Of a stretch of DNA of 64,000 nt, positions 3,958-17,412 are shown piece after piece. The stretch is from the IMG/VR virus record IMGVR_UViG_3300033463_000004, positions 1 through 64,000 of that record. The stretch is one strand, 5' to 3'. The position numbers and the translations under genes are program-made. The first letter of the stretch is position 1; each line of letters starts with the position of its first letter. Below the pieces are notes generated by a model. The model searched no databases. It saw only the letters and a list, made by a program, of their open reading frames with translations, and was not told the origin of the DNA. Source of the DNA: a virus. Taxonomy: Duplodnaviria; Caudoviricetes.

Positions 3958-3969
3958 ACATATATACTT
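3958..3969 (+). promoter_or_regulatory. Early-type phage promoter motif (A[CG]ATATATnnTT), representative copy
   Basis: Recurs at operon starts: 10968, 12571, 16427, 24862, 26898, 36701, 45323, 53665, 55738, 61307 (+) and ~21870, 24827 (-); resembles phiKZ/AR9 early TATATT-type motifs. Confidence 0.65.
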
Positions 3970-4181: not shown

Positions 4182-5849
4182 ATGCTTGATCCTTCGTTGA
4201 TCATTACGGGGATTGCAGGGATCTGTGTTGCCATCAGTACTATCATTGATAGATTATCTGGTAATACAAATATGGGTTACTATTATACATACCCTTATAC
4301 GTATCCCACATATCAGTATTATCCCCAACAGCAAATGATACAACAACCAATGCAGCAATGCACATATGACTTTTCACGTCGTGCAATTGGCATGCCTGTT
4401 GCTCAGATGTATCAGCCGCAGATGATGCAGCCGATAATGATTCCAATGCAACAACCGGTTCAGTATCAATCAACTTATCCGTGGGCGAGTAATAATCAGG
4501 TTATGAATTACCCGCCGCAATATGTACAAAATTACCCTAATTATCCAATGCAACAGCAAATGGGCGGTTGCTATGTATATCCGAAAGTGTATGATTATGA
4601 TTTCGACAAAAGAAATCGAATGATCACACAGCAGCAACAAATGAATACGATGATGATGGGTAATGGATATAATGGGATGACTGCTGACGCAATGTATGAG
4701 AATGCTATGCGTGAGAACGTGAAACGTGCTTGGCAGAATTGGGATACGAGAAGATATTCCATGCCAATCAATCCTCCTGTTATGCCACAACAAATGATGA
4801 ATGTTCCACAGCCTCAAATGCAACAGCCGATGATGAATCAACCAATGATGAATCAGCCGATGCAACAGCCCCCTGCATGGGCACATAATATGGCTGTAAA
4901 CACAAATCATTATCCTGATATGAGCAGGCGTGATATGGGCCAGCCTGATCAGTATCCTTGGTCGTCTAATAATATGAATAATTATCAGACAAGCGGTTGG
5001 AAACCGTATGACCAATTGAGAGAATGGCAGGCTAAAGAGATGAGAAATGCGCTGACTGATAATGGTGCATTCTATCATACCAATCCGAATGGTGGATTTA
5101 ACCCGTACATGGTTCATCAATCACAAACGCCGTGCACAGATCCAAACTTTCCGGCACTGACAGCTTTAAGTAATACGGGAACTCCGCCAGAACTGAGATT
5201 TGCAAACCCACCAACTGAGTCTGCTTTGGTGGAACATGCAAGACGGCATACAGATCCGTTAGGGCGTTTTTTTAAGGAAGCTCCGGAATCTTTTAACAGT
5301 GGCGAATCAACGAAAACAAATGACGTGATAATCGATGATACAGACTATAGTCATGTTACATTCGATATGCTTCTTCGCAATCAGGCATTGACACATCCGA
5401 AATTGTCTAAAGAGGAATTTGAACGGGTGAAAAAGGAAGTTGAAAATCCTCGTCCATTTGCACCTGGTGAAGCACCTACAATTCACATAGGTGGTCCTCA
5501 GCCTGTTATACCGTTGACACCTGAAGAAGAAAGAGATAAGTATGAGCGAGAATATAAACGGCCACAGATTACGGAGTGGGTTGTTCATCCGGAAAATGAT
5601 CCGGATCCAGAAGTTAGAAAAGACTGGTATAGAAGACATGACAAGTATATCATGAGTTTAGCAGAAACTTCTGCCGAACCTTTAGACGTAAGCGGAGTTT
5701 GGTCAGATGATGACCCAACTGATAATGTATCGACACCAATCGAAACAGACAATTCAATTCAAAACAATTCAGTTCAGACAGAAACAACAGAAGAAGCAGT
5801 TGAATATACACGTGAAACGTGTCCGTATAAAATAACTGCAGATCCATAA
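4182..5849 (+). CDS. Gln/Pro/Met/Tyr-rich low-complexity protein with N-terminal hydrophobic segment
   Basis: N-terminal LIITGIAGICVAISTII; about 250 aa of Q/P/M/Y/N; repeated SRR/TRR and YPW motifs; acidic C-terminus. Confidence 0.8.
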   Translation: MLDPSLIITGIAGICVAISTIIDRLSGNTNMGYYYTYPYTYPTYQYYPQQQMIQQPMQQCTYDFSRRAIGMPVAQMYQPQMMQPIMIPMQQPVQYQSTYPWASNNQVMNYPPQYVQNYPNYPMQQQMGGCYVYPKVYDYDFDKRNRMITQQQQMNTMMMGNGYNGMTADAMYENAMRENVKRAWQNWDTRRYSMPINPPVMPQQMMNVPQPQMQQPMMNQPMMNQPMQQPPAWAHNMAVNTNHYPDMSRRDMGQPDQYPWSSNNMNNYQTSGWKPYDQLREWQAKEMRNALTDNGAFYHTNPNGGFNPYMVHQSQTPCTDPNFPALTALSNTGTPPELRFANPPTESALVEHARRHTDPLGRFFKEAPESFNSGESTKTNDVIIDDTDYSHVTFDMLLRNQALTHPKLSKEEFERVKKEVENPRPFAPGEAPTIHIGGPQPVIPLTPEEERDKYEREYKRPQITEWVVHPENDPDPEVRKDWYRRHDKYIMSLAETSAEPLDVSGVWSDDDPTDNVSTPIETDNSIQNNSVQTETTEEAVEYTRETCPYKITADP

Positions 5850-5937: not shown

Positions 5938-6321
5938 ATGTCAAATCCTACTGTATCAGCAGTATTCGATGGAGTGAATTCTGTTTGTAATCAAGCAAAT
6001 TCGATCATCGATACAGGTCGAGCATTTGCAAATACTGCAATGTCTGCATTTGATTCTTTGTCAAATATCTCCAGAAGAGATTTCAATTATCAGATGCGAC
6101 CAATGACATATCAGCCGACGACATATCCGTGGGCATCACAGCAATATGGTTCGCCATATGGTCAGCAGCAAGGCATTACTGGTTATCCGGGTATCTCAAA
6201 TCCGAATTATGGAAGACCTGGATATTTCGGTAGCGGTTTCATCAATACCTCAGCATTCTCCCAACCGCAATCGCAATGGAATATTCCGTCATGGGTTGAA
6301 CAGTCTATTTGGGGGTCATAA
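5938..6321 (+). CDS. Small Gln/Tyr/Gly/Pro-rich protein (SRR/YPWA motif)
   Basis: AAGGAGG SD; NISRRDFNY...TYPWASQ. Confidence 0.8.
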   Translation: MSNPTVSAVFDGVNSVCNQANSIIDTGRAFANTAMSAFDSLSNISRRDFNYQMRPMTYQPTTYPWASQQYGSPYGQQQGITGYPGISNPNYGRPGYFGSGFINTSAFSQPQSQWNIPSWVEQSIWGS

Positions 6322-10952: not shown

Positions 10953-11068
10953 TTTTTTATTTCAGAGAGATATATCATTAAGCAGATTAGAGGGGCATTT
11001 TGCCCCTCTATCTACTTTTTGAAATCTCTGAACCAAAATATACAAATTTGATTACAGGCGGTGATGTT

Positions 11069-12559: not shown

Positions 12560-12646
12560 TTATTTTTCGCACATATATAATTTATTCGATTACGGGTGAC
12601 ACAATGTTACTCCGTGATTGAAAATATTCGAGGAGGTTTACACATC

Positions 12647-13279
12647 ATGATTGAGAATTATCAATCACACATTCTCAAACCAGCAGAAGTGGTCGACTAT
12701 TCCGCTGAGTTGATCCATGGTTTGAGACCGGAAATCATTCAGATGGAACCGATGATCGGATTCAAAGTGATGGTAAGAGACATGAATGCATACACAACAC
12801 CTTCTCAGGCAGCGAGATTCCAATTCATTGAAATGAATCTCGGATTCCTGAAAGATAGTGGTTGTATCATTCGTGAAACTCAAACCACTGAATCACCTGA
12901 TGGATTTTGGGTCATCACGTTCCCGGTTCCGCAATCACAGCTTTCGGCACAAATGTCAAAATTGACGATTGTGCTGGACTTCCTGACATCTAATTTCGGT
13001 ATCATTCCTGTTGATGTTGTTGAGATTAATGTATCAGGAAGATGCCCTGTTGGTGAAAGTGAATGGCGTCTTGCAAACGTTAATATCCCGAGTGCAATTC
13101 GTCAGTATTCAGTTGAACCGACAAATACCCCGTATAAACTTGGACATATCATCAGAATTAATGATGAATTTGCAATGCTTCGCACAATGTGGGATTGGCG
13201 CAATAGCGGTATGCCGTCAAGTTCTCATTTAAGCGATATGCTTGTAATTCCTCAGTTGATCAGTGGTATGTTCCGGTAA
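12647..13279 (+). CDS. Hypothetical protein
   Basis: GAGGAGG SD; first gene after an early-type promoter and 5' hairpin. Confidence 0.75.
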   Translation: MIENYQSHILKPAEVVDYSAELIHGLRPEIIQMEPMIGFKVMVRDMNAYTTPSQAARFQFIEMNLGFLKDSGCIIRETQTTESPDGFWVITFPVPQSQLSAQMSKLTIVLDFLTSNFGIIPVDVVEINVSGRCPVGESEWRLANVNIPSAIRQYSVEPTNTPYKLGHIIRINDEFAMLRTMWDWRNSGMPSSSHLSDMLVIPQLISGMFR

Positions 13280-13303
13280 TATTCCAAAGGAGGAAAACTA
13301 CTC

Positions 13304-13984
13304 ATGAGTATCTTCAACACCAATCCCGATCCCGATTATCCGGTTCTGAATGGTCCGGGATTCATTCAGGCCACCTATCAGCAGTACAACAACCCTTATA
13401 TGCAGGCTGCAGGTGCACAGCAGTACTACTATAATGGTCAGTATCTCCAGCCCATGTATCAGCCGATGCATCAGCCTGGTTTCCCCGCTGATTCCAGAAG
13501 ATATGATGCACCGACGACTCCGATGCCGACACAGCAGCCGCAACAGACATTCGGTTTCAATCAGTTTGCTGAAAGCAGACGGAACCAGGTAAATCCGCCT
13601 GCAACAAGTCCGTGGGCTGTTCAGACAATTCAGCAACCGCAACCTGTTATGCCGGTAATGCAGATGCAACAATTTGCAGCACCACAAACACAGGTGACAA
13701 CTGTGACATATCCGTCTGCATATCTCACAACAAACAATCCATATCCCGCATTGACAACTTGTCATCCGTCAATCGACAAGACAAATGCATGGGGTGATCC
13801 GAAGGTGTACAACCCAATGCCTGCTCCGATGGTGAATTGGGGCAATGTTGGTATGCAGCCTGTACAGGTGGCACCTCAGCAGTGTGGATATGCACTTCAG
13901 ACAATGACATATCCTCAGCCGGTTATGACACAGCCGATTCAGCAGAACTGGGAAGAAATTGCGAAGCAGAACTTCCCGAAGTAA
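13304..13984 (+). CDS. Gln/Pro-rich low-complexity protein (two SRR motifs, SPWA)
   Basis: AAAGGAGG SD; ADSRRYD and AESRRNQ..SPWAVQ; high-expression codon bias. Confidence 0.85.
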   Translation: MSIFNTNPDPDYPVLNGPGFIQATYQQYNNPYMQAAGAQQYYYNGQYLQPMYQPMHQPGFPADSRRYDAPTTPMPTQQPQQTFGFNQFAESRRNQVNPPATSPWAVQTIQQPQPVMPVMQMQQFAAPQTQVTTVTYPSAYLTTNNPYPALTTCHPSIDKTNAWGDPKVYNPMPAPMVNWGNVGMQPVQVAPQQCGYALQTMTYPQPVMTQPIQQNWEEIAKQNFPK

Positions 13985-13997
13985 GGAGTGAAAGCCG

Positions 13998-14843
13998 ATG
14001 ATCTTCACGTATAGATCAAGATTGGCACAAATTCCTATTGAAGTACGAGAGGCGTTAGGTGAGGTGTCATATCAAATTGGTATGACACCTTCAGCCAGAA
14101 GAGAACGGTGCATAAAAGCTTTAAAAGAACATAATATCCCATTCAAAGATATTGGTACTGGAACAAATCGATTCATCATCCGATATGACGGATATGCGGT
14201 TAAAATCGCATTGGATGCTGAAGGGATTGCAGACAATAAACAAGAATGGGTTATGTCATCAAGGTTATCGCCTGATGTTGCTAAAGCTCATGAAATAAGT
14301 AAAGGAGGCCACCTGTTGGTGGCCTCATATGCACCAGCCTTTTCAAATTATCAGGAATTTTTGTCATATAGGCCACAAATAACGGCGATACTCAAACGAT
14401 GGTCAAAACAATATTTGTTGGGTGATGTTGGTATCACATCTGTAAATTATGCAAACTGGGGACTTCTTGAAAGTAAACCTGTTTGTATAGATTACGCGTA
14501 TATATTTCCTGTTGCAATGAGAACATTCACATGTGTTTGTGGTTGTGAAGAAATGAATTTTGCAGATGAACAATTCACAATATACAAATGTGGTAATCCT
14601 GATTGTAATATGACGTATACCGACAGAGAGCTTCGTTCGAGAATCTCGCAAGAAGAACGTTTACGTTTATTCAAAAATGTTTCTGATAAAGCCATTGAAA
14701 TGTTTGCACCAGAACAGGATGTCGAAATCGAAGATGGTTTATTGAAACGAGATATTGATCCGGATTTACCTGATCCTCTGGAAGTAACTGAAGGTGTGCA
14801 GTTATATGAAAGCTATAAACCACTCACAAAAATTATCAGATGA
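13998..14843 (+). CDS. Ser/Thr protein-kinase-like protein with C-terminal Cys (Zn) cluster
   Basis: G-loop IGTGTNR, YAVK lysine, alphaC Glu (NKQEW), catalytic LGDV....NWG, IDY (DFG equivalent); CVCGC..CGNPDC. Confidence 0.75.
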   Translation: MIFTYRSRLAQIPIEVREALGEVSYQIGMTPSARRERCIKALKEHNIPFKDIGTGTNRFIIRYDGYAVKIALDAEGIADNKQEWVMSSRLSPDVAKAHEISKGGHLLVASYAPAFSNYQEFLSYRPQITAILKRWSKQYLLGDVGITSVNYANWGLLESKPVCIDYAYIFPVAMRTFTCVCGCEEMNFADEQFTIYKCGNPDCNMTYTDRELRSRISQEERLRLFKNVSDKAIEMFAPEQDVEIEDGLLKRDIDPDLPDPLEVTEGVQLYESYKPLTKIIR

Positions 14844-14857
14844 AAGGAGTTTGAATC

Positions 14858-15406
14858 ATGCATTATTCAAGAATATTTCGATCTGCAAATGGGACAGCAC
14901 AACTTGTCCCACAAACATCTGAATCAAAAGAAGACCGTTTAATCAAACTGGTTGAAAAGCTTGCAAAGAATACCCAACAGATTCCACAAGCTTTGCAAGA
15001 ATCCAAAACAGCATTGACAGATGATGACGTCAGTATCATGTTGGAATTTGCGTGTAAATTCCAAAAGGAATATTTTAGTGATATTCCTTTGGCACAAGAT
15101 CTTGGTGAATTGAAATTATTTATTTTCAATTTACCAAAAAGCATTGTTTCCGGTATGAAATATGCTCGTAATCATCCAGAACTTCCTGATGTATTGAATC
15201 CGGTTATGTTTATTTATCCACTTCTCACAGTGAATCCCGAATGCTCAATTGGATTATATTGGATGAAGTTGATGCAATTGCTCGATGGCAATCGCGAAGC
15301 CATCGAACAGGACGCATCTTCATATATTGCTGATATGATGCCATACGATGATGAGGATGAATCTGAAGAAGAATATGAGGAGGATAATGATAATGGCGAA
15401 TATTGA
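14858..15406 (+). CDS. Hypothetical protein with acidic tail
   Basis: AAAGGAG SD; 182 aa. Confidence 0.75.
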   Translation: MHYSRIFRSANGTAQLVPQTSESKEDRLIKLVEKLAKNTQQIPQALQESKTALTDDDVSIMLEFACKFQKEYFSDIPLAQDLGELKLFIFNLPKSIVSGMKYARNHPELPDVLNPVMFIYPLLTVNPECSIGLYWMKLMQLLDGNREAIEQDASSYIADMMPYDDEDESEEEYEEDNDNGEY

Positions 15407-16427
15407 TAATAAGGACATCAAGTTCACCGGAGATCCCGTCGCATTTGACGGGGTCGAAGGCAAGCGTGATCCGAAGACTGGAAAAGGTCGTTTTGATTTG
15501 ATTCCGGAAGAAGTATACTATCCGCTGTTCTCGAAAGCGGATCATGATTGGTTGCTCGACTGCCATCCCGCATCCATTCTGATGTCAATCGCGGATGAAA
15601 AATTCGTTGAAGCAATCATCAAAATGACTATCTATTCATATGCTGAACATAATGAAGATTATGCTGCTTCGAGTTCGGAGTTCTGGAATGGTGTATGGCC
15701 GATGCTTCAGGATCTAGCTATTCACTTCCAGAAGGGGGCCGAACACTACGGTGAGAGAAACTGTCAGAAGGGTATCCCGCTCTGGAGCTTTAAGGATTCC
15801 GCAATGCGTCATGCAGCACAGACGTTTGCTGGAAAGACAGATGAACCACATATGATTTCGGTTATCTGGAACTGCTGGATGGCAGAGTGGACCGTACTTC
15901 ATGAGAAGACTAAGGAAAAGATCGGTCCTTATACCGTTAAAGTTCTGAAGGCCCGAACTCCGGAAGAGATCGAAGCAGCCAAATCAGCAGCATCTACACC
16001 GGAACTCAAGGCAATGAAACTGCAGTCGGCGCTGAAAGAAGTTCGGGAAGCTGGTTATGTTGTCATACAACCGACGGCGTCTCTTGATACCAATGATCTG
16101 ATCAATTATGTTTCAGAGCTTCTTATAAGGAGACGCAAGGCACTTAAGACGAATATGTATAAGTATCCAACCTGGTCGCCGGAATATGATGCTTTCTACC
16201 GGGAACAAAAGCGTCTGAAAAGTGTCATCAATGCGATTCATGCAGCATCTGATGATGCTGAAACGAAAACTGATAATGCGAAAGACGATCTCGAAGAGAT
16301 GAGAAGCTTCATCGATAAACTGAAGAAATGGGCAGAAGAACAGGAATTTCCGATCGTCACAGCCATTCAGCATTTCTATACTCGTGAGGAAGCCGAGTTC
16401 TTAGATAATAACAAAACCGAAGAGTGA
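15393..16427 (+). CDS. dATP/dGTP diphosphohydrolase-domain (DUF5664-like) protein with C-terminal extension
   Basis: GKGRFDLIP...KGAEHYGERNCQKGIP....DSAMRH...DEPH....WN. Confidence 0.75.
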   Translation: MANIDNKDIKFTGDPVAFDGVEGKRDPKTGKGRFDLIPEEVYYPLFSKADHDWLLDCHPASILMSIADEKFVEAIIKMTIYSYAEHNEDYAASSSEFWNGVWPMLQDLAIHFQKGAEHYGERNCQKGIPLWSFKDSAMRHAAQTFAGKTDEPHMISVIWNCWMAEWTVLHEKTKEKIGPYTVKVLKARTPEEIEAAKSAASTPELKAMKLQSALKEVREAGYVVIQPTASLDTNDLINYVSELLIRRRKALKTNMYKYPTWSPEYDAFYREQKRLKSVINAIHAASDDAETKTDNAKDDLEEMRSFIDKLKKWAEEQEFPIVTAIQHFYTREEAEFLDNNKTEE

Positions 16428-16463
16428 CATATATATCATTATCCAGAAAGGAGATGGTATACA

Positions 16464-17378
16464 ATGATTTTCTGTTCTCGTCGTGTGTTTCTGAATGTAG
16501 TAACTCAGCTATATGATTTGGAAACATTGGTCAATGCGAACTATTTTCTGGTAGATCAGATTAAACCAACAGGATTTGCAAACATCGTTGATGAACCTCA
16601 TATCGGAAGTGATGGTGAAGTCACATATTCACCGAGTTTAGATTTCTCATCGTTTCAACAGCAAGCAATGCATCGGTTCTTTATCAACTATTCGAAAGTG
16701 CTAGATGTCATGCCGTATTTCGGTGCAATAACAGCGTCATTTCGAAATGATTTCTCATCACCGGTTGAACGCGTCATTTCGCATTTAAATAATCCTGAAT
16801 GTCAGATATCGATCTATCAGGAATTATTCCAAAAGAAACTTCAAGGAAATGGTGTTCAAATTGTTATTATGCAATCGGATACAGGTGTACAAGAATGTGG
16901 ACATATCATATGCCAATTTTTGTCCGAAGAATTCGGTGCGGATGTAACATTCGTTGATCCAATGTATCGTCCCAAAACAAAAGGTCAATTACAATATGCT
17001 GGAAACAAAACACGTGGACAACAACATGTACAAGAACTTCGTGATATGATTTTCAGAATGGCTATTCAAACCGCATTGGATAGTGCACAATTTGGAAATG
17101 GTATTGCAAATTTAGAAGCATTCTTTGACAATGATGATTTGACAATTCAAGACATGTTCCACGCATATCAGTTGTTATTCCCGAATGATCAACTTCCACC
17201 CGGAAATTATTCCATTCCTCATATGAAACAAATGATCATTGGTAGATTATTGGATGCAACAGGTAAACGTGCAGAAAATAAAAAGATCAGTGATCTTGGA
17301 ATCAATTTCTATGCCTTTGATCAAATGATCGGAGAATATGACGATAAAATTGAAGAGGATTTTTCTGATATATCATGA
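16464..17378 (+). CDS. Hypothetical protein
   Basis: Early-type promoter at 16427, AAGGAG SD, downstream terminator. Confidence 0.75.
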   Translation: MIFCSRRVFLNVVTQLYDLETLVNANYFLVDQIKPTGFANIVDEPHIGSDGEVTYSPSLDFSSFQQQAMHRFFINYSKVLDVMPYFGAITASFRNDFSSPVERVISHLNNPECQISIYQELFQKKLQGNGVQIVIMQSDTGVQECGHIICQFLSEEFGADVTFVDPMYRPKTKGQLQYAGNKTRGQQHVQELRDMIFRMAIQTALDSAQFGNGIANLEAFFDNDDLTIQDMFHAYQLLFPNDQLPPGNYSIPHMKQMIIGRLLDATGKRAENKKISDLGINFYAFDQMIGEYDDKIEEDFSDIS

Positions 17379-17412
17379 ATAAAGAGGGGGATGATCCCCC
17401 TCTTTATTTTTT
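17378..17412 (+). terminator. Intrinsic terminator
   Basis: aataaagaggggga-tga-tccccctctttatt plus T run. Confidence 0.85.

Follow-up and report, generated by a model that had tools for sequence, protein, structure and literature searches.

Locus and source genome

The DNA examined here, referred to as the window, is the leading 64 kb of IMGVR_UViG_3300033463_000004, an IMG/VR record of 262,694 bp that originates from ruminant-gut metagenomes and has an estimated completeness of 98 %. Our subject is a gene at 13998..14843 on the plus strand that encodes a kinase-like protein of 281 amino acids, P0001, recognized by its motifs, their conservation and an AlphaFold2 model. Directly upstream on the same strand (13304..13984) lies the gene for P0002, a low-complexity protein of 226 residues rich in glutamine and proline (Q/P-rich), identified from its own open reading frame (ORF) and a set of conserved short motifs. 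The P0002 gene ends with TAA at 13982-13984, the P0001 gene begins with ATG at 13998, and the 13-nt spacer between these co-oriented genes (13985..13997, +) carries a GGAG Shine-Dalgarno sequence as ribosome-binding site for the kinase gene. The arrangement given in an initial annotation of this DNA, a kinase gene 13 nt past a Q/P-rich gene in one operon, is borne out by these coordinates, the common orientation and the GGAG.

The window also encodes split RNA polymerase β-type subunits, a PhuZ-like tubulin, the large terminase, topoisomerase II and an SbcC-like protein, with genes for a GroEL-like chaperonin and a DnaB-like helicase likewise present. As the polymerase subunits are split in the phiKZ/AR9-like manner and occur together with the PhuZ-like tubulin, the terminase and other such genes, the gene content marks the source virus as a jumbo phage of the phiKZ/AR9 style.

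Sequence motifs of P0001

Along P0001 the motifs run in the order G53-T-G55-T56-N57-R58, A-V-K69, E83, G142-D143...N150..N153, I-D165-Y and C179-x-C181...C198-x4-C203. The initial annotation had listed kinase elements in the same order (GTGTNR, AVK, an αC glutamate, GD......N and IDY); this is confirmed in the protein and the elements are conserved across 53 homologues sharing 26-72 % identity with P0001 (alignment A1). Invariant in this alignment are G53, G55, N57, R58, K69, G76, E83, D143, G145, N150, N153, D165, Y168, C198 and C203, while T56, D73, D79, N80, G142, W154, G155, A167, C179 and C181 are at least 90 % conserved. Of 266 family members, 237 satisfy strict regular expressions for each of the five catalytic motifs, and the rest fail on one or two of these patterns.

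The glycine-rich loop G53-T-G55-T56-N57-R58 (14154..14171, +) lies between β1 and β2, modelled as strands 50-54 and 58-63, and is unusual in closing with the invariant N57-R58. The segment from the β3 lysine K69 (14202-14204), placed in strand 66-71, to the αC glutamate E83 (14244-14246), placed in helix 74-90, covers 14202..14246 (+) and includes the family-specific residues D73, G76, D79 and N80. The catalytic loop, D143-V-G145-I-T-S-V-N150-Y-A-N153 (14424..14456, +), is found between helix 125-136 and strand 154-157. Directly after strand 160-163 (β8) comes D165-Y-A-Y168 (14490..14501, +), in which D165 is the equivalent of the metal-binding aspartate of the DFG motif. On the model K69 would pair with E83, and either N150 or N153 would be the metal-binding asparagine. 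A Cys4 insert resembling a zinc ribbon follows (14532..14606, +), modelled with three short strands, and the conservation of its four cysteines upholds the Zn-like module of the initial annotation.

Overall structure and the zinc ribbon

The AlphaFold2 model of P0001, built on the 53-row alignment, has a mean predicted local distance difference test (pLDDT) score of 90.7 and a predicted template modelling (pTM) score of 0.84. A Foldseek comparison with the PDB gives 81 matches at E ≤ 1e-3, and each one listed is a kinase of the protein-kinase-like (PKL) fold, with a template modelling (TM) score of approximately 0.35. RIO2, PRPK, RIO1, CaMKII, JAK and POMK lead, and ROCK is also listed. VIA-align against 48,161 representative chains ranks ULK4 (Z 9.2), Rio2 (8.2), APH(2'') (8.1), Rio1 (8.1) and Bud32 (7.8), and 50 of the best 50 matches are PKL-type; a second look gives CDKL1 (8.9), PRPK (8.6) and ULK1 (8.6), with 125-165 residues aligned at 2.8-4.8 Å. 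In BFVD two uncharacterised Myoviridae proteins match best (E approximately 1e-13), followed by annotated phage and giant-virus kinases, and in the ESM Atlas three viral clusters labelled hypothetical protein match the model with TM scores of 0.72-0.77.

Since all the structural matches are PKL proteins and the invariant residues sit on the expected elements, assignment of the modelled P0001 to the PKL fold is secure. The kinase-like fold anticipated in the initial annotation is confirmed in the Foldseek comparison, where only PKL enzymes appear among the listed matches. The bilobal fold is present, as are the glycine-rich loop, the β3 lysine and the αC glutamate, across the 53 sequences and in the model.

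The best single VIA-align match, ULK4, is a pseudokinase, and the spacing within the P0001 catalytic loop is non-canonical. Both observations would fit a pseudokinase or scaffold that retains the fold without catalysis. Against this, K69, E83, D143, an asparagine, D165 and the glycine loop are invariant in the 53 sequences, down to 26 % identity, and are kept in approximately 90 % of the 266. Invariance of the residues for phosphotransfer is typical of active enzymes and we therefore regard a pseudokinase as very improbable.

The model divides into four parts. Residues 1-48 form a strand and two helices, in which S7 is nearly invariant and set in an RSR context. Residues 49-170 constitute a minimal kinase core. 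The zinc ribbon occupies approximately residues 176-208, with strands at 186-188, 195-198 and 206-208 and pLDDT values of 87-96. Finally, the C-terminal part, 209-281, comprises one or two helices (209-231) and a poorly modelled tail. The Cys4 module is, on the model, a zinc ribbon with two CxnC knuckles carried on β-hairpins, and is predicted to bind metal. In a Pfam scan of the 53 members the recurrent families are zinc ribbons, all with weak scores; Zn_Ribbon_TF and DUF5817 match 11-12 of the 53.

The activation segment, P+1 loop and αG region of classical kinases are absent from the model and, as the Cys4 module comes directly after D165-Y-A-Y, it occupies the position of the classical activation segment. 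There is likewise no APE-ending activation segment and no αF-αI lobe, and the PF00069 (Pkinase) profile matches nowhere in the genome nor among the families listed for the 53 members. With its truncated C-lobe, missing activation loop and N-terminal extension, the modelled layout resembles RIO and Bud32 more closely than classical kinases. The RIO-type structures Rio1, Rio2 and RIOK3 score Z 7.8-8.4, level with many other kinases, and the RIO1 profile PF01163 does not match P0001. A RIO1 profile match at 237003-237146 of the record (E 0.008, below the cut-off) corresponds to an out-of-frame ORF of 58 codons and was rejected as chance.

Family size, long forms and distribution

An exhaustive HMMER search over 1.84 billion cluster representatives finds at least 808 clusters of the P0001 family at E ≤ 1e-3, 371 at E ≤ 1e-10 and 90 at E ≤ 1e-30. 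The only family that P0001 itself matches is PHROG 4301, of unknown function; a PHROG scan of the 53 members returns phrog_4301 in 27, a single phrog_5602 and nothing else.

Most members are larger than P0001, with lengths of 500-1200 amino acids (P0128-P0160 are examples). Among the best 150 representatives 108 have at least 500 residues, 31 falling in the 500-700 range and 52 in the 900-1100 range, and the kinase with its ribbon module is N-terminal in all of these long forms. Beyond this module the chain continues with acidic low-complexity linkers, which also separate two conserved domains (approximately 480-660 and 838-1012 in P0137 numbering), and ends in a basic tail. Neither tblastn with 108 long homologues nor hidden Markov models of domains B and C run against six-frame ORFs detect these C-terminal domains in the present genome. 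An AlphaFold2 model of the long-form region P0144:367-767 (pLDDT 81.6) gives no convincing fold, the best Foldseek match having E 0.19 (winged-helix-like matches) and VIA-align giving Z 5.9. At three loci (L020, L023 and L026) the long form is split into a kinase gene of approximately 295 codons and a second gene for 530-650 residues.

Close homologues are carried on contigs of 200-295 kb, and the members in our set are found only on phage-sized contigs and on two contigs from Bacteroidales metagenome-assembled genomes (MAGs). These are L028 (JAFYOM010000133.1), from a Parabacteroides MAG of water-buffalo caecum, and L029 (CAMJFV010000004.1), from an uncultured Bacteroidales MAG, and both carry the cassette of a 210-residue protein gene, Q/P-rich gene and kinase gene. 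This is a weak hint of Bacteroidales hosts, or else phage contigs have been mis-binned into the MAGs. A tblastn search with P0001 and the long-form N-terminus P0137:1-260 against 50,697 GenBank phage records gives no match, and a detectable member is therefore absent from the cultured phages of that set. A literature search found no publication describing the family, and the databases that contain its members label them hypothetical.

By these searches the P0001 family is large, unnamed and essentially limited to big phages. What is new to description is a phage PKL family in which a zinc ribbon replaces the activation segment and the catalytic loop is lengthened. Naming it would give hundreds of 'hypothetical' genes in gut and rumen jumbo phages a testable function, and would provide a compact new scaffold for the study of substrate choice by minimal kinases.

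The Q/P-rich neighbour and its SRR motifs

P0002 has a combined glutamine and proline content of 31 % and contains the tripeptide SRR at residues 64-66 and 91-93. Its orthologues conserve the short motifs NPDYP, FYYNG, [SA]RR (twice), NPW and a C-terminal W..IA..NW, with variable low-complexity sequence between them. To judge from this pattern P0002 is a real gene under selection. A minus-strand ORF of 155 codons, rich in cysteine, arginine and leucine, runs antisense to it (13298-13765); it was rejected as a gene, being a shadow frame of the CAG/CCG-rich coding strand. The description of P0002 as disordered in the initial annotation has indirect backing only, in the low-complexity composition, the confinement of conservation to short motifs and a pLDDT below 50 for segment 40-125 in at least one of two complex-prediction runs. 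The family has 18 detectable clusters, all on contigs that are short or of jumbo-phage size. A search of the source genome with the P0002 profile brings up the P0002 gene itself, at 5e-54, and no paralogue.

Three ORFs of the window, 4182-5849, 5938-6321 and 13304-13984 (P0002), share a syntax of SRR, 8-17 residues and PW[AS]. In BLASTP comparisons P0002 and ORFs 4182 and 5938 have only short motif matches (E > 0.1), with no detectable homology. ORF 4182 has a hydrophobic segment at its N-terminus. A reading of S-R-R as a Tat signal was discarded, as the sequences past the motif show no hydrophobic h-region.

The initial annotation proposed that the serine of SRR is the phospho-acceptor in a switch like that of the SRPK enzymes, so that the kinase, by phosphorylating P0002 and the low-complexity proteins at 4182 and 5938, would control their assembly. 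Several observations speak for this: the gap of 13 nt between two genes of a common transcription unit, the conservation of SRR as a short motif, and the occurrence of SRR...PW[AS] in three otherwise unrelated low-complexity ORFs. In 15 orthologues the residue at the first position of motif 1 is Ser in 13 and Ala in two, and that of motif 2 is Ser in 11, Thr in one, Ala in three and Asn in one. The Q/P-rich ORF also stands immediately 5′ of the kinase gene at 17 of 17 loci of the clade (15 from IMG/VR and two from MAGs).

The same alignments argue against the serine as acceptor. R66 is present in 15 of 15 orthologues, and the Arg-Arg pair varies less than the serine. Both motifs have Ala in L007, L011 and L014, motif 1 is degraded to SAR and motif 2 absent in L008, and L028 has no [STA]RR anywhere, so that the serine is replaced by Ala or the motif lost in five of the 17 orthologues. 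The four kinases that were checked (L007, L008, L011 and L014) nevertheless keep all catalytic and zinc motifs. There is no invariant Ser, Thr or Tyr column among the P0002 orthologues.

Genomic co-occurrence is no firmer. Throughout the clade the order helicase, 210-residue protein gene, Q/P-rich gene, kinase gene and acidic-tail gene is kept, with kinase identities of 44-76 %, and since the 17 loci are one clade with the whole gene order retained their adjacency is not independent evidence. In a more distant clade that also bears the kinase, the upstream ORFs have at most 7 % Q+P at the seven loci examined, a search of two complete genomes (270 and 289 kb) with the P0002 profile gives no homologue, and a full ORF scan of the complete 289-kb genome yields zero Q/P-rich ORFs. 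The kinase family, moreover, is far larger (at least 808 clusters against 18). Co-occurrence of the kinase with an SRR protein, which the initial annotation had suggested as a check, therefore holds within one syntenic clade and fails in the distant one. When the kinase was modelled together with P0002 residues 40-125, ATP and Mg, the predicted complex scored 0.00, which speaks neither for nor against binding.

With an enzyme that lacks the classical C-lobe and docking groove used by SRPKs, an SRPK-like switch acting on the SRR serine is unlikely. It fails outside the immediate clade, and what remains of it is a clade-specific specialisation, which we also consider improbable. On the comparative sequence data P0002 is a clade-specific syntenic neighbour of the kinase, neither a demonstrated nor a general partner. 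A reversible switch would in addition need a phosphatase, and PP2C has no match in the whole genome. The genome showed a single candidate protein phosphatase, a calcineurin-like phosphoesterase of 225 amino acids (PHROG 547) at 193520-194197, some 180 kb away; its gene adjoins that of an SbcD-like nuclease subunit at 195653-196711.

A broader proposal makes the zinc-ribbon kinase, in this clade of jumbo phages, the writer of a phage short-motif code. It would recognize [S/A]RR...NPW/PW[AS] in the unrelated Q/P/Y-rich low-complexity products of ORFs 4182, 5938 and 13304 and phosphorylate these proteins, not necessarily on the SRR serine, thereby controlling a condensate-like compartment for replication or assembly. 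We hold this to be a speculative and doubtful extension. If true, a short-motif code would lead to kinase-controlled assembly and dissolution of a condensate-like compartment in a bacterial virus.

Probable transcription unit and neighbouring genes

The gap that follows the gene for the DnaB-like helicase contains a promoter-like element, ACATATATAATT (12571..12582, +), which is the probable start of the transcription unit that bears the kinase gene. It differs by one mismatch from a motif at 3958, upstream of ORF 4182. An element resembling TATA(t/c)(a/g)TATAATT is found in the same position at 14 of 14 related loci examined, including the gaps in L002-L016, approximately 65-75 nt upstream of the 210-residue protein gene, and is followed there by a hairpin-forming 5′ leader. 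The bare 9-mer has 13 copies in the genome where approximately nine are expected by chance from base composition, so there is no enrichment and only the positional conservation of the element carries weight. We note similar copies at 3958, before the Q/P-rich ORF 4182 (555 residues), and at 16427, before the gene for a 304-residue protein.

At the other end a 15-bp GC-rich hairpin followed by a T-run (17377..17409, +) is a probable terminator, and a second terminator-like hairpin lies at 10988-11010. The kinase gene is thus probably held in a unit spanning 12571-17409. The promoter-like element and terminator-like hairpins make a unit of six genes likely: those for the 210-residue protein, the Q/P-rich protein, the kinase, a 182-residue protein with an acidic tail, a MazG-like protein and the 304-residue protein.

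The first of these (12647..13279, +) encodes a conserved protein present in every related locus that reaches that far, with no match in Pfam, PHROG or NCBIfam. The ORF listing starts it at GTG 12596, whereas its orthologues start with ATG, which gives MIENYQSHIL. Downstream of the kinase gene, the gene for the acidic-tail protein (14858..15406, +) is syntenic in the clade and likewise without a family match in Pfam, PHROG and NCBIfam scans. It is followed by an ORF (15348-16427) with a MazG-like N-terminal domain of the dATP/dGTP diphosphohydrolase type (PF18909, 2e-12; PHROG 801); orthologues suggest that its true start is an ATG at approximately 15393 (MANIDNK...), in which case its first 14 nt would still lie within the acidic-tail gene. 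The last gene (16464-17378) encodes the 304-residue protein beginning MIFCSRRVFLN.... In the distant clade a gene for approximately 230 residues (L019 8068-8775, MIYRIDxxHFLTH...) also lies shortly downstream of the kinase; homology between the two downstream genes is not established, with an hhalign probability of 13 %.

Function of P0001

Is P0001 an active enzyme, and is protein its substrate? On balance we think it probable that P0001 is an active minimal PKL phosphotransferase of phages, most probably phosphorylating host or phage proteins during infection. We infer catalytic activity, a protein substrate, a docking role for the ribbon and the timing of expression. The small N-lobe (GTGTNR, K69 and E83) and truncated C-lobe (D143, N150/N153 and D165) would bind ATP-Mg in the manner of kinases of RIO/Bud32 size. 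The Cys4 zinc ribbon would stand in for the activation segment and substrate-binding helices of classical kinases and, together with the conserved N-terminal extension of 48 residues, may dock the enzyme on its target. The gene would be transcribed with replication-type genes from the phage-specific promoter-like element, and Ser/Thr residues of host or phage proteins would be phosphorylated during infection, by analogy with other phage kinases.

Some results weigh against this interpretation. The structural scores are middling (Z 8-9, TM approximately 0.35), with no subfamily standing above the others, and none of the sequence models for kinase families matches P0001 in Pfam, NCBIfam or PDB searches, the last by phmmer and by profile. 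The catalytic loop, GDVGxxxxNxxNWG, has its asparagines at D+7 and D+10 and is longer than the canonical D-x4-N (D+5). Although D143, N150, N153 and D165 occur in the expected order and loops, their equivalence to kinase residues is by secondary-structure position only. RIO and Bud32 proteins, finally, are chiefly ATPases or partner-bound regulators, and APH-type relatives phosphorylate small molecules, so protein-kinase activity of P0001 is not assured.

This last point leads to a different reading of the fold, that P0001 is not a protein kinase. It might be a partner-bound ATPase or switch, as RIO is on the pre-40S particle and Bud32 in KEOPS, or a kinase of small molecules or nucleic-acid ends such as APH or the archaeal RNA kinase Ark1, with a role in nucleotide or DNA metabolism or in host takeover. 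The structural neighbours nearest in size are indeed RIO1/2, Bud32/PRPK, APH(2'') and Ark1 (Z 7.5-8.6), the model lacks an activation segment, a P+1 loop and an αG region, and the gene is placed among helicase and deoxynucleoside triphosphate (dNTP)-pyrophosphatase-like genes. APH-bearing clusters also occur among the Atlas feature neighbours, as a lead only. Set against this, the scores of classical protein kinases are just as high (ULK4 9.2, CDKL1 8.9), the annotated viral structural neighbours in BFVD are protein kinases, the acidic linkers and extra domains of the long forms suggest protein-protein targeting, and no small-molecule pathway genes are conserved beside the kinase across clades. 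We regard this reading, the main rival of a protein kinase, as rather unlikely.

Comparison with known systems

The likeness of this locus to SRPK or CLK enzymes acting on arginine-serine (RS) domains is one of idea only, a kinase beside a low-complexity protein containing Arg and Ser. Enzymes of the SRPK type have a complete classical kinase domain, a spacer insert and a docking groove, and their substrates are long RS dipeptide repeats. P0001, by contrast, has a minimal fold, and its neighbour carries two isolated SRR motifs whose serine is dispensable in several orthologues. The pairing has neither a conserved acceptor serine nor co-occurrence beyond the one clade, and P0001 is not an SRPK-type classical kinase.

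RIO kinases (Rio1/Rio2; PDB codes 1ZP9, 1TQI and 1ZAO) and Bud32/PRPK (4WW5 and 6WQX) resemble P0001 in size, in the full N-lobe, truncated C-lobe and N-terminal helical extension, and in having no activation segment or substrate-binding helices. Structural alignment with P0001 gives Z 7.8-8.6 over 140-153 residues at 3.3-5.3 Å, and these proteins have the best Foldseek E-values. P0001 differs in lacking a match to their sequence profiles, in having a GDVGxxxxNxxN loop in place of D-x4-N and in the zinc ribbon that follows the DFG-equivalent aspartate. The P0001 family is found in phages, whereas RIO and Bud32 belong to the cellular machinery of the ribosome or of tRNA modification.

To our knowledge few phage kinase families have been described. 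The small annotated phage kinases in BFVD, such as those from Xylella phage Cota, Bacillus phage Curly and the Ralstonia jumbo phage RP12, are compact kinase folds of 180-270 residues like P0001, with Foldseek E-values of 1e-5 to 3e-5 and TM scores of 0.34-0.40. They differ in that only 13-15 % of residues are identical over 150-198 aligned columns, no zinc ribbon is evident in the matches and there is no kinship at the level of sequence.

The best-studied phage protein kinase is that of T7, gp0.7 (T7K, PHROG 2828), which the initial annotation named as the model for an alternative role of the kinase, an action on host defence or translation. Neither P0001 nor the 53 members match PHROG 2828, and by sequence P0001 falls outside the T7 kinase family. 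Its D-[YF]-A motif contrasts with the DPV variant of DFG in T7K (PMC13645617), it has no shut-off domain, and the zinc ribbon and N-terminal extension are specific to the P0001 family. The two nevertheless have in common that they are phage PKL enzymes whose DFG-like motif has diverged and which carry additional C-terminal modules for targeting. T7K phosphorylates promiscuously and counters defence, and phage kinases have recently been shown, with T7K, to be broad anti-defence weapons (PMC13645617). By analogy T7K is plausibly the best functional counterpart of the P0001 family, which may likewise serve host takeover or anti-defence by phosphorylation.

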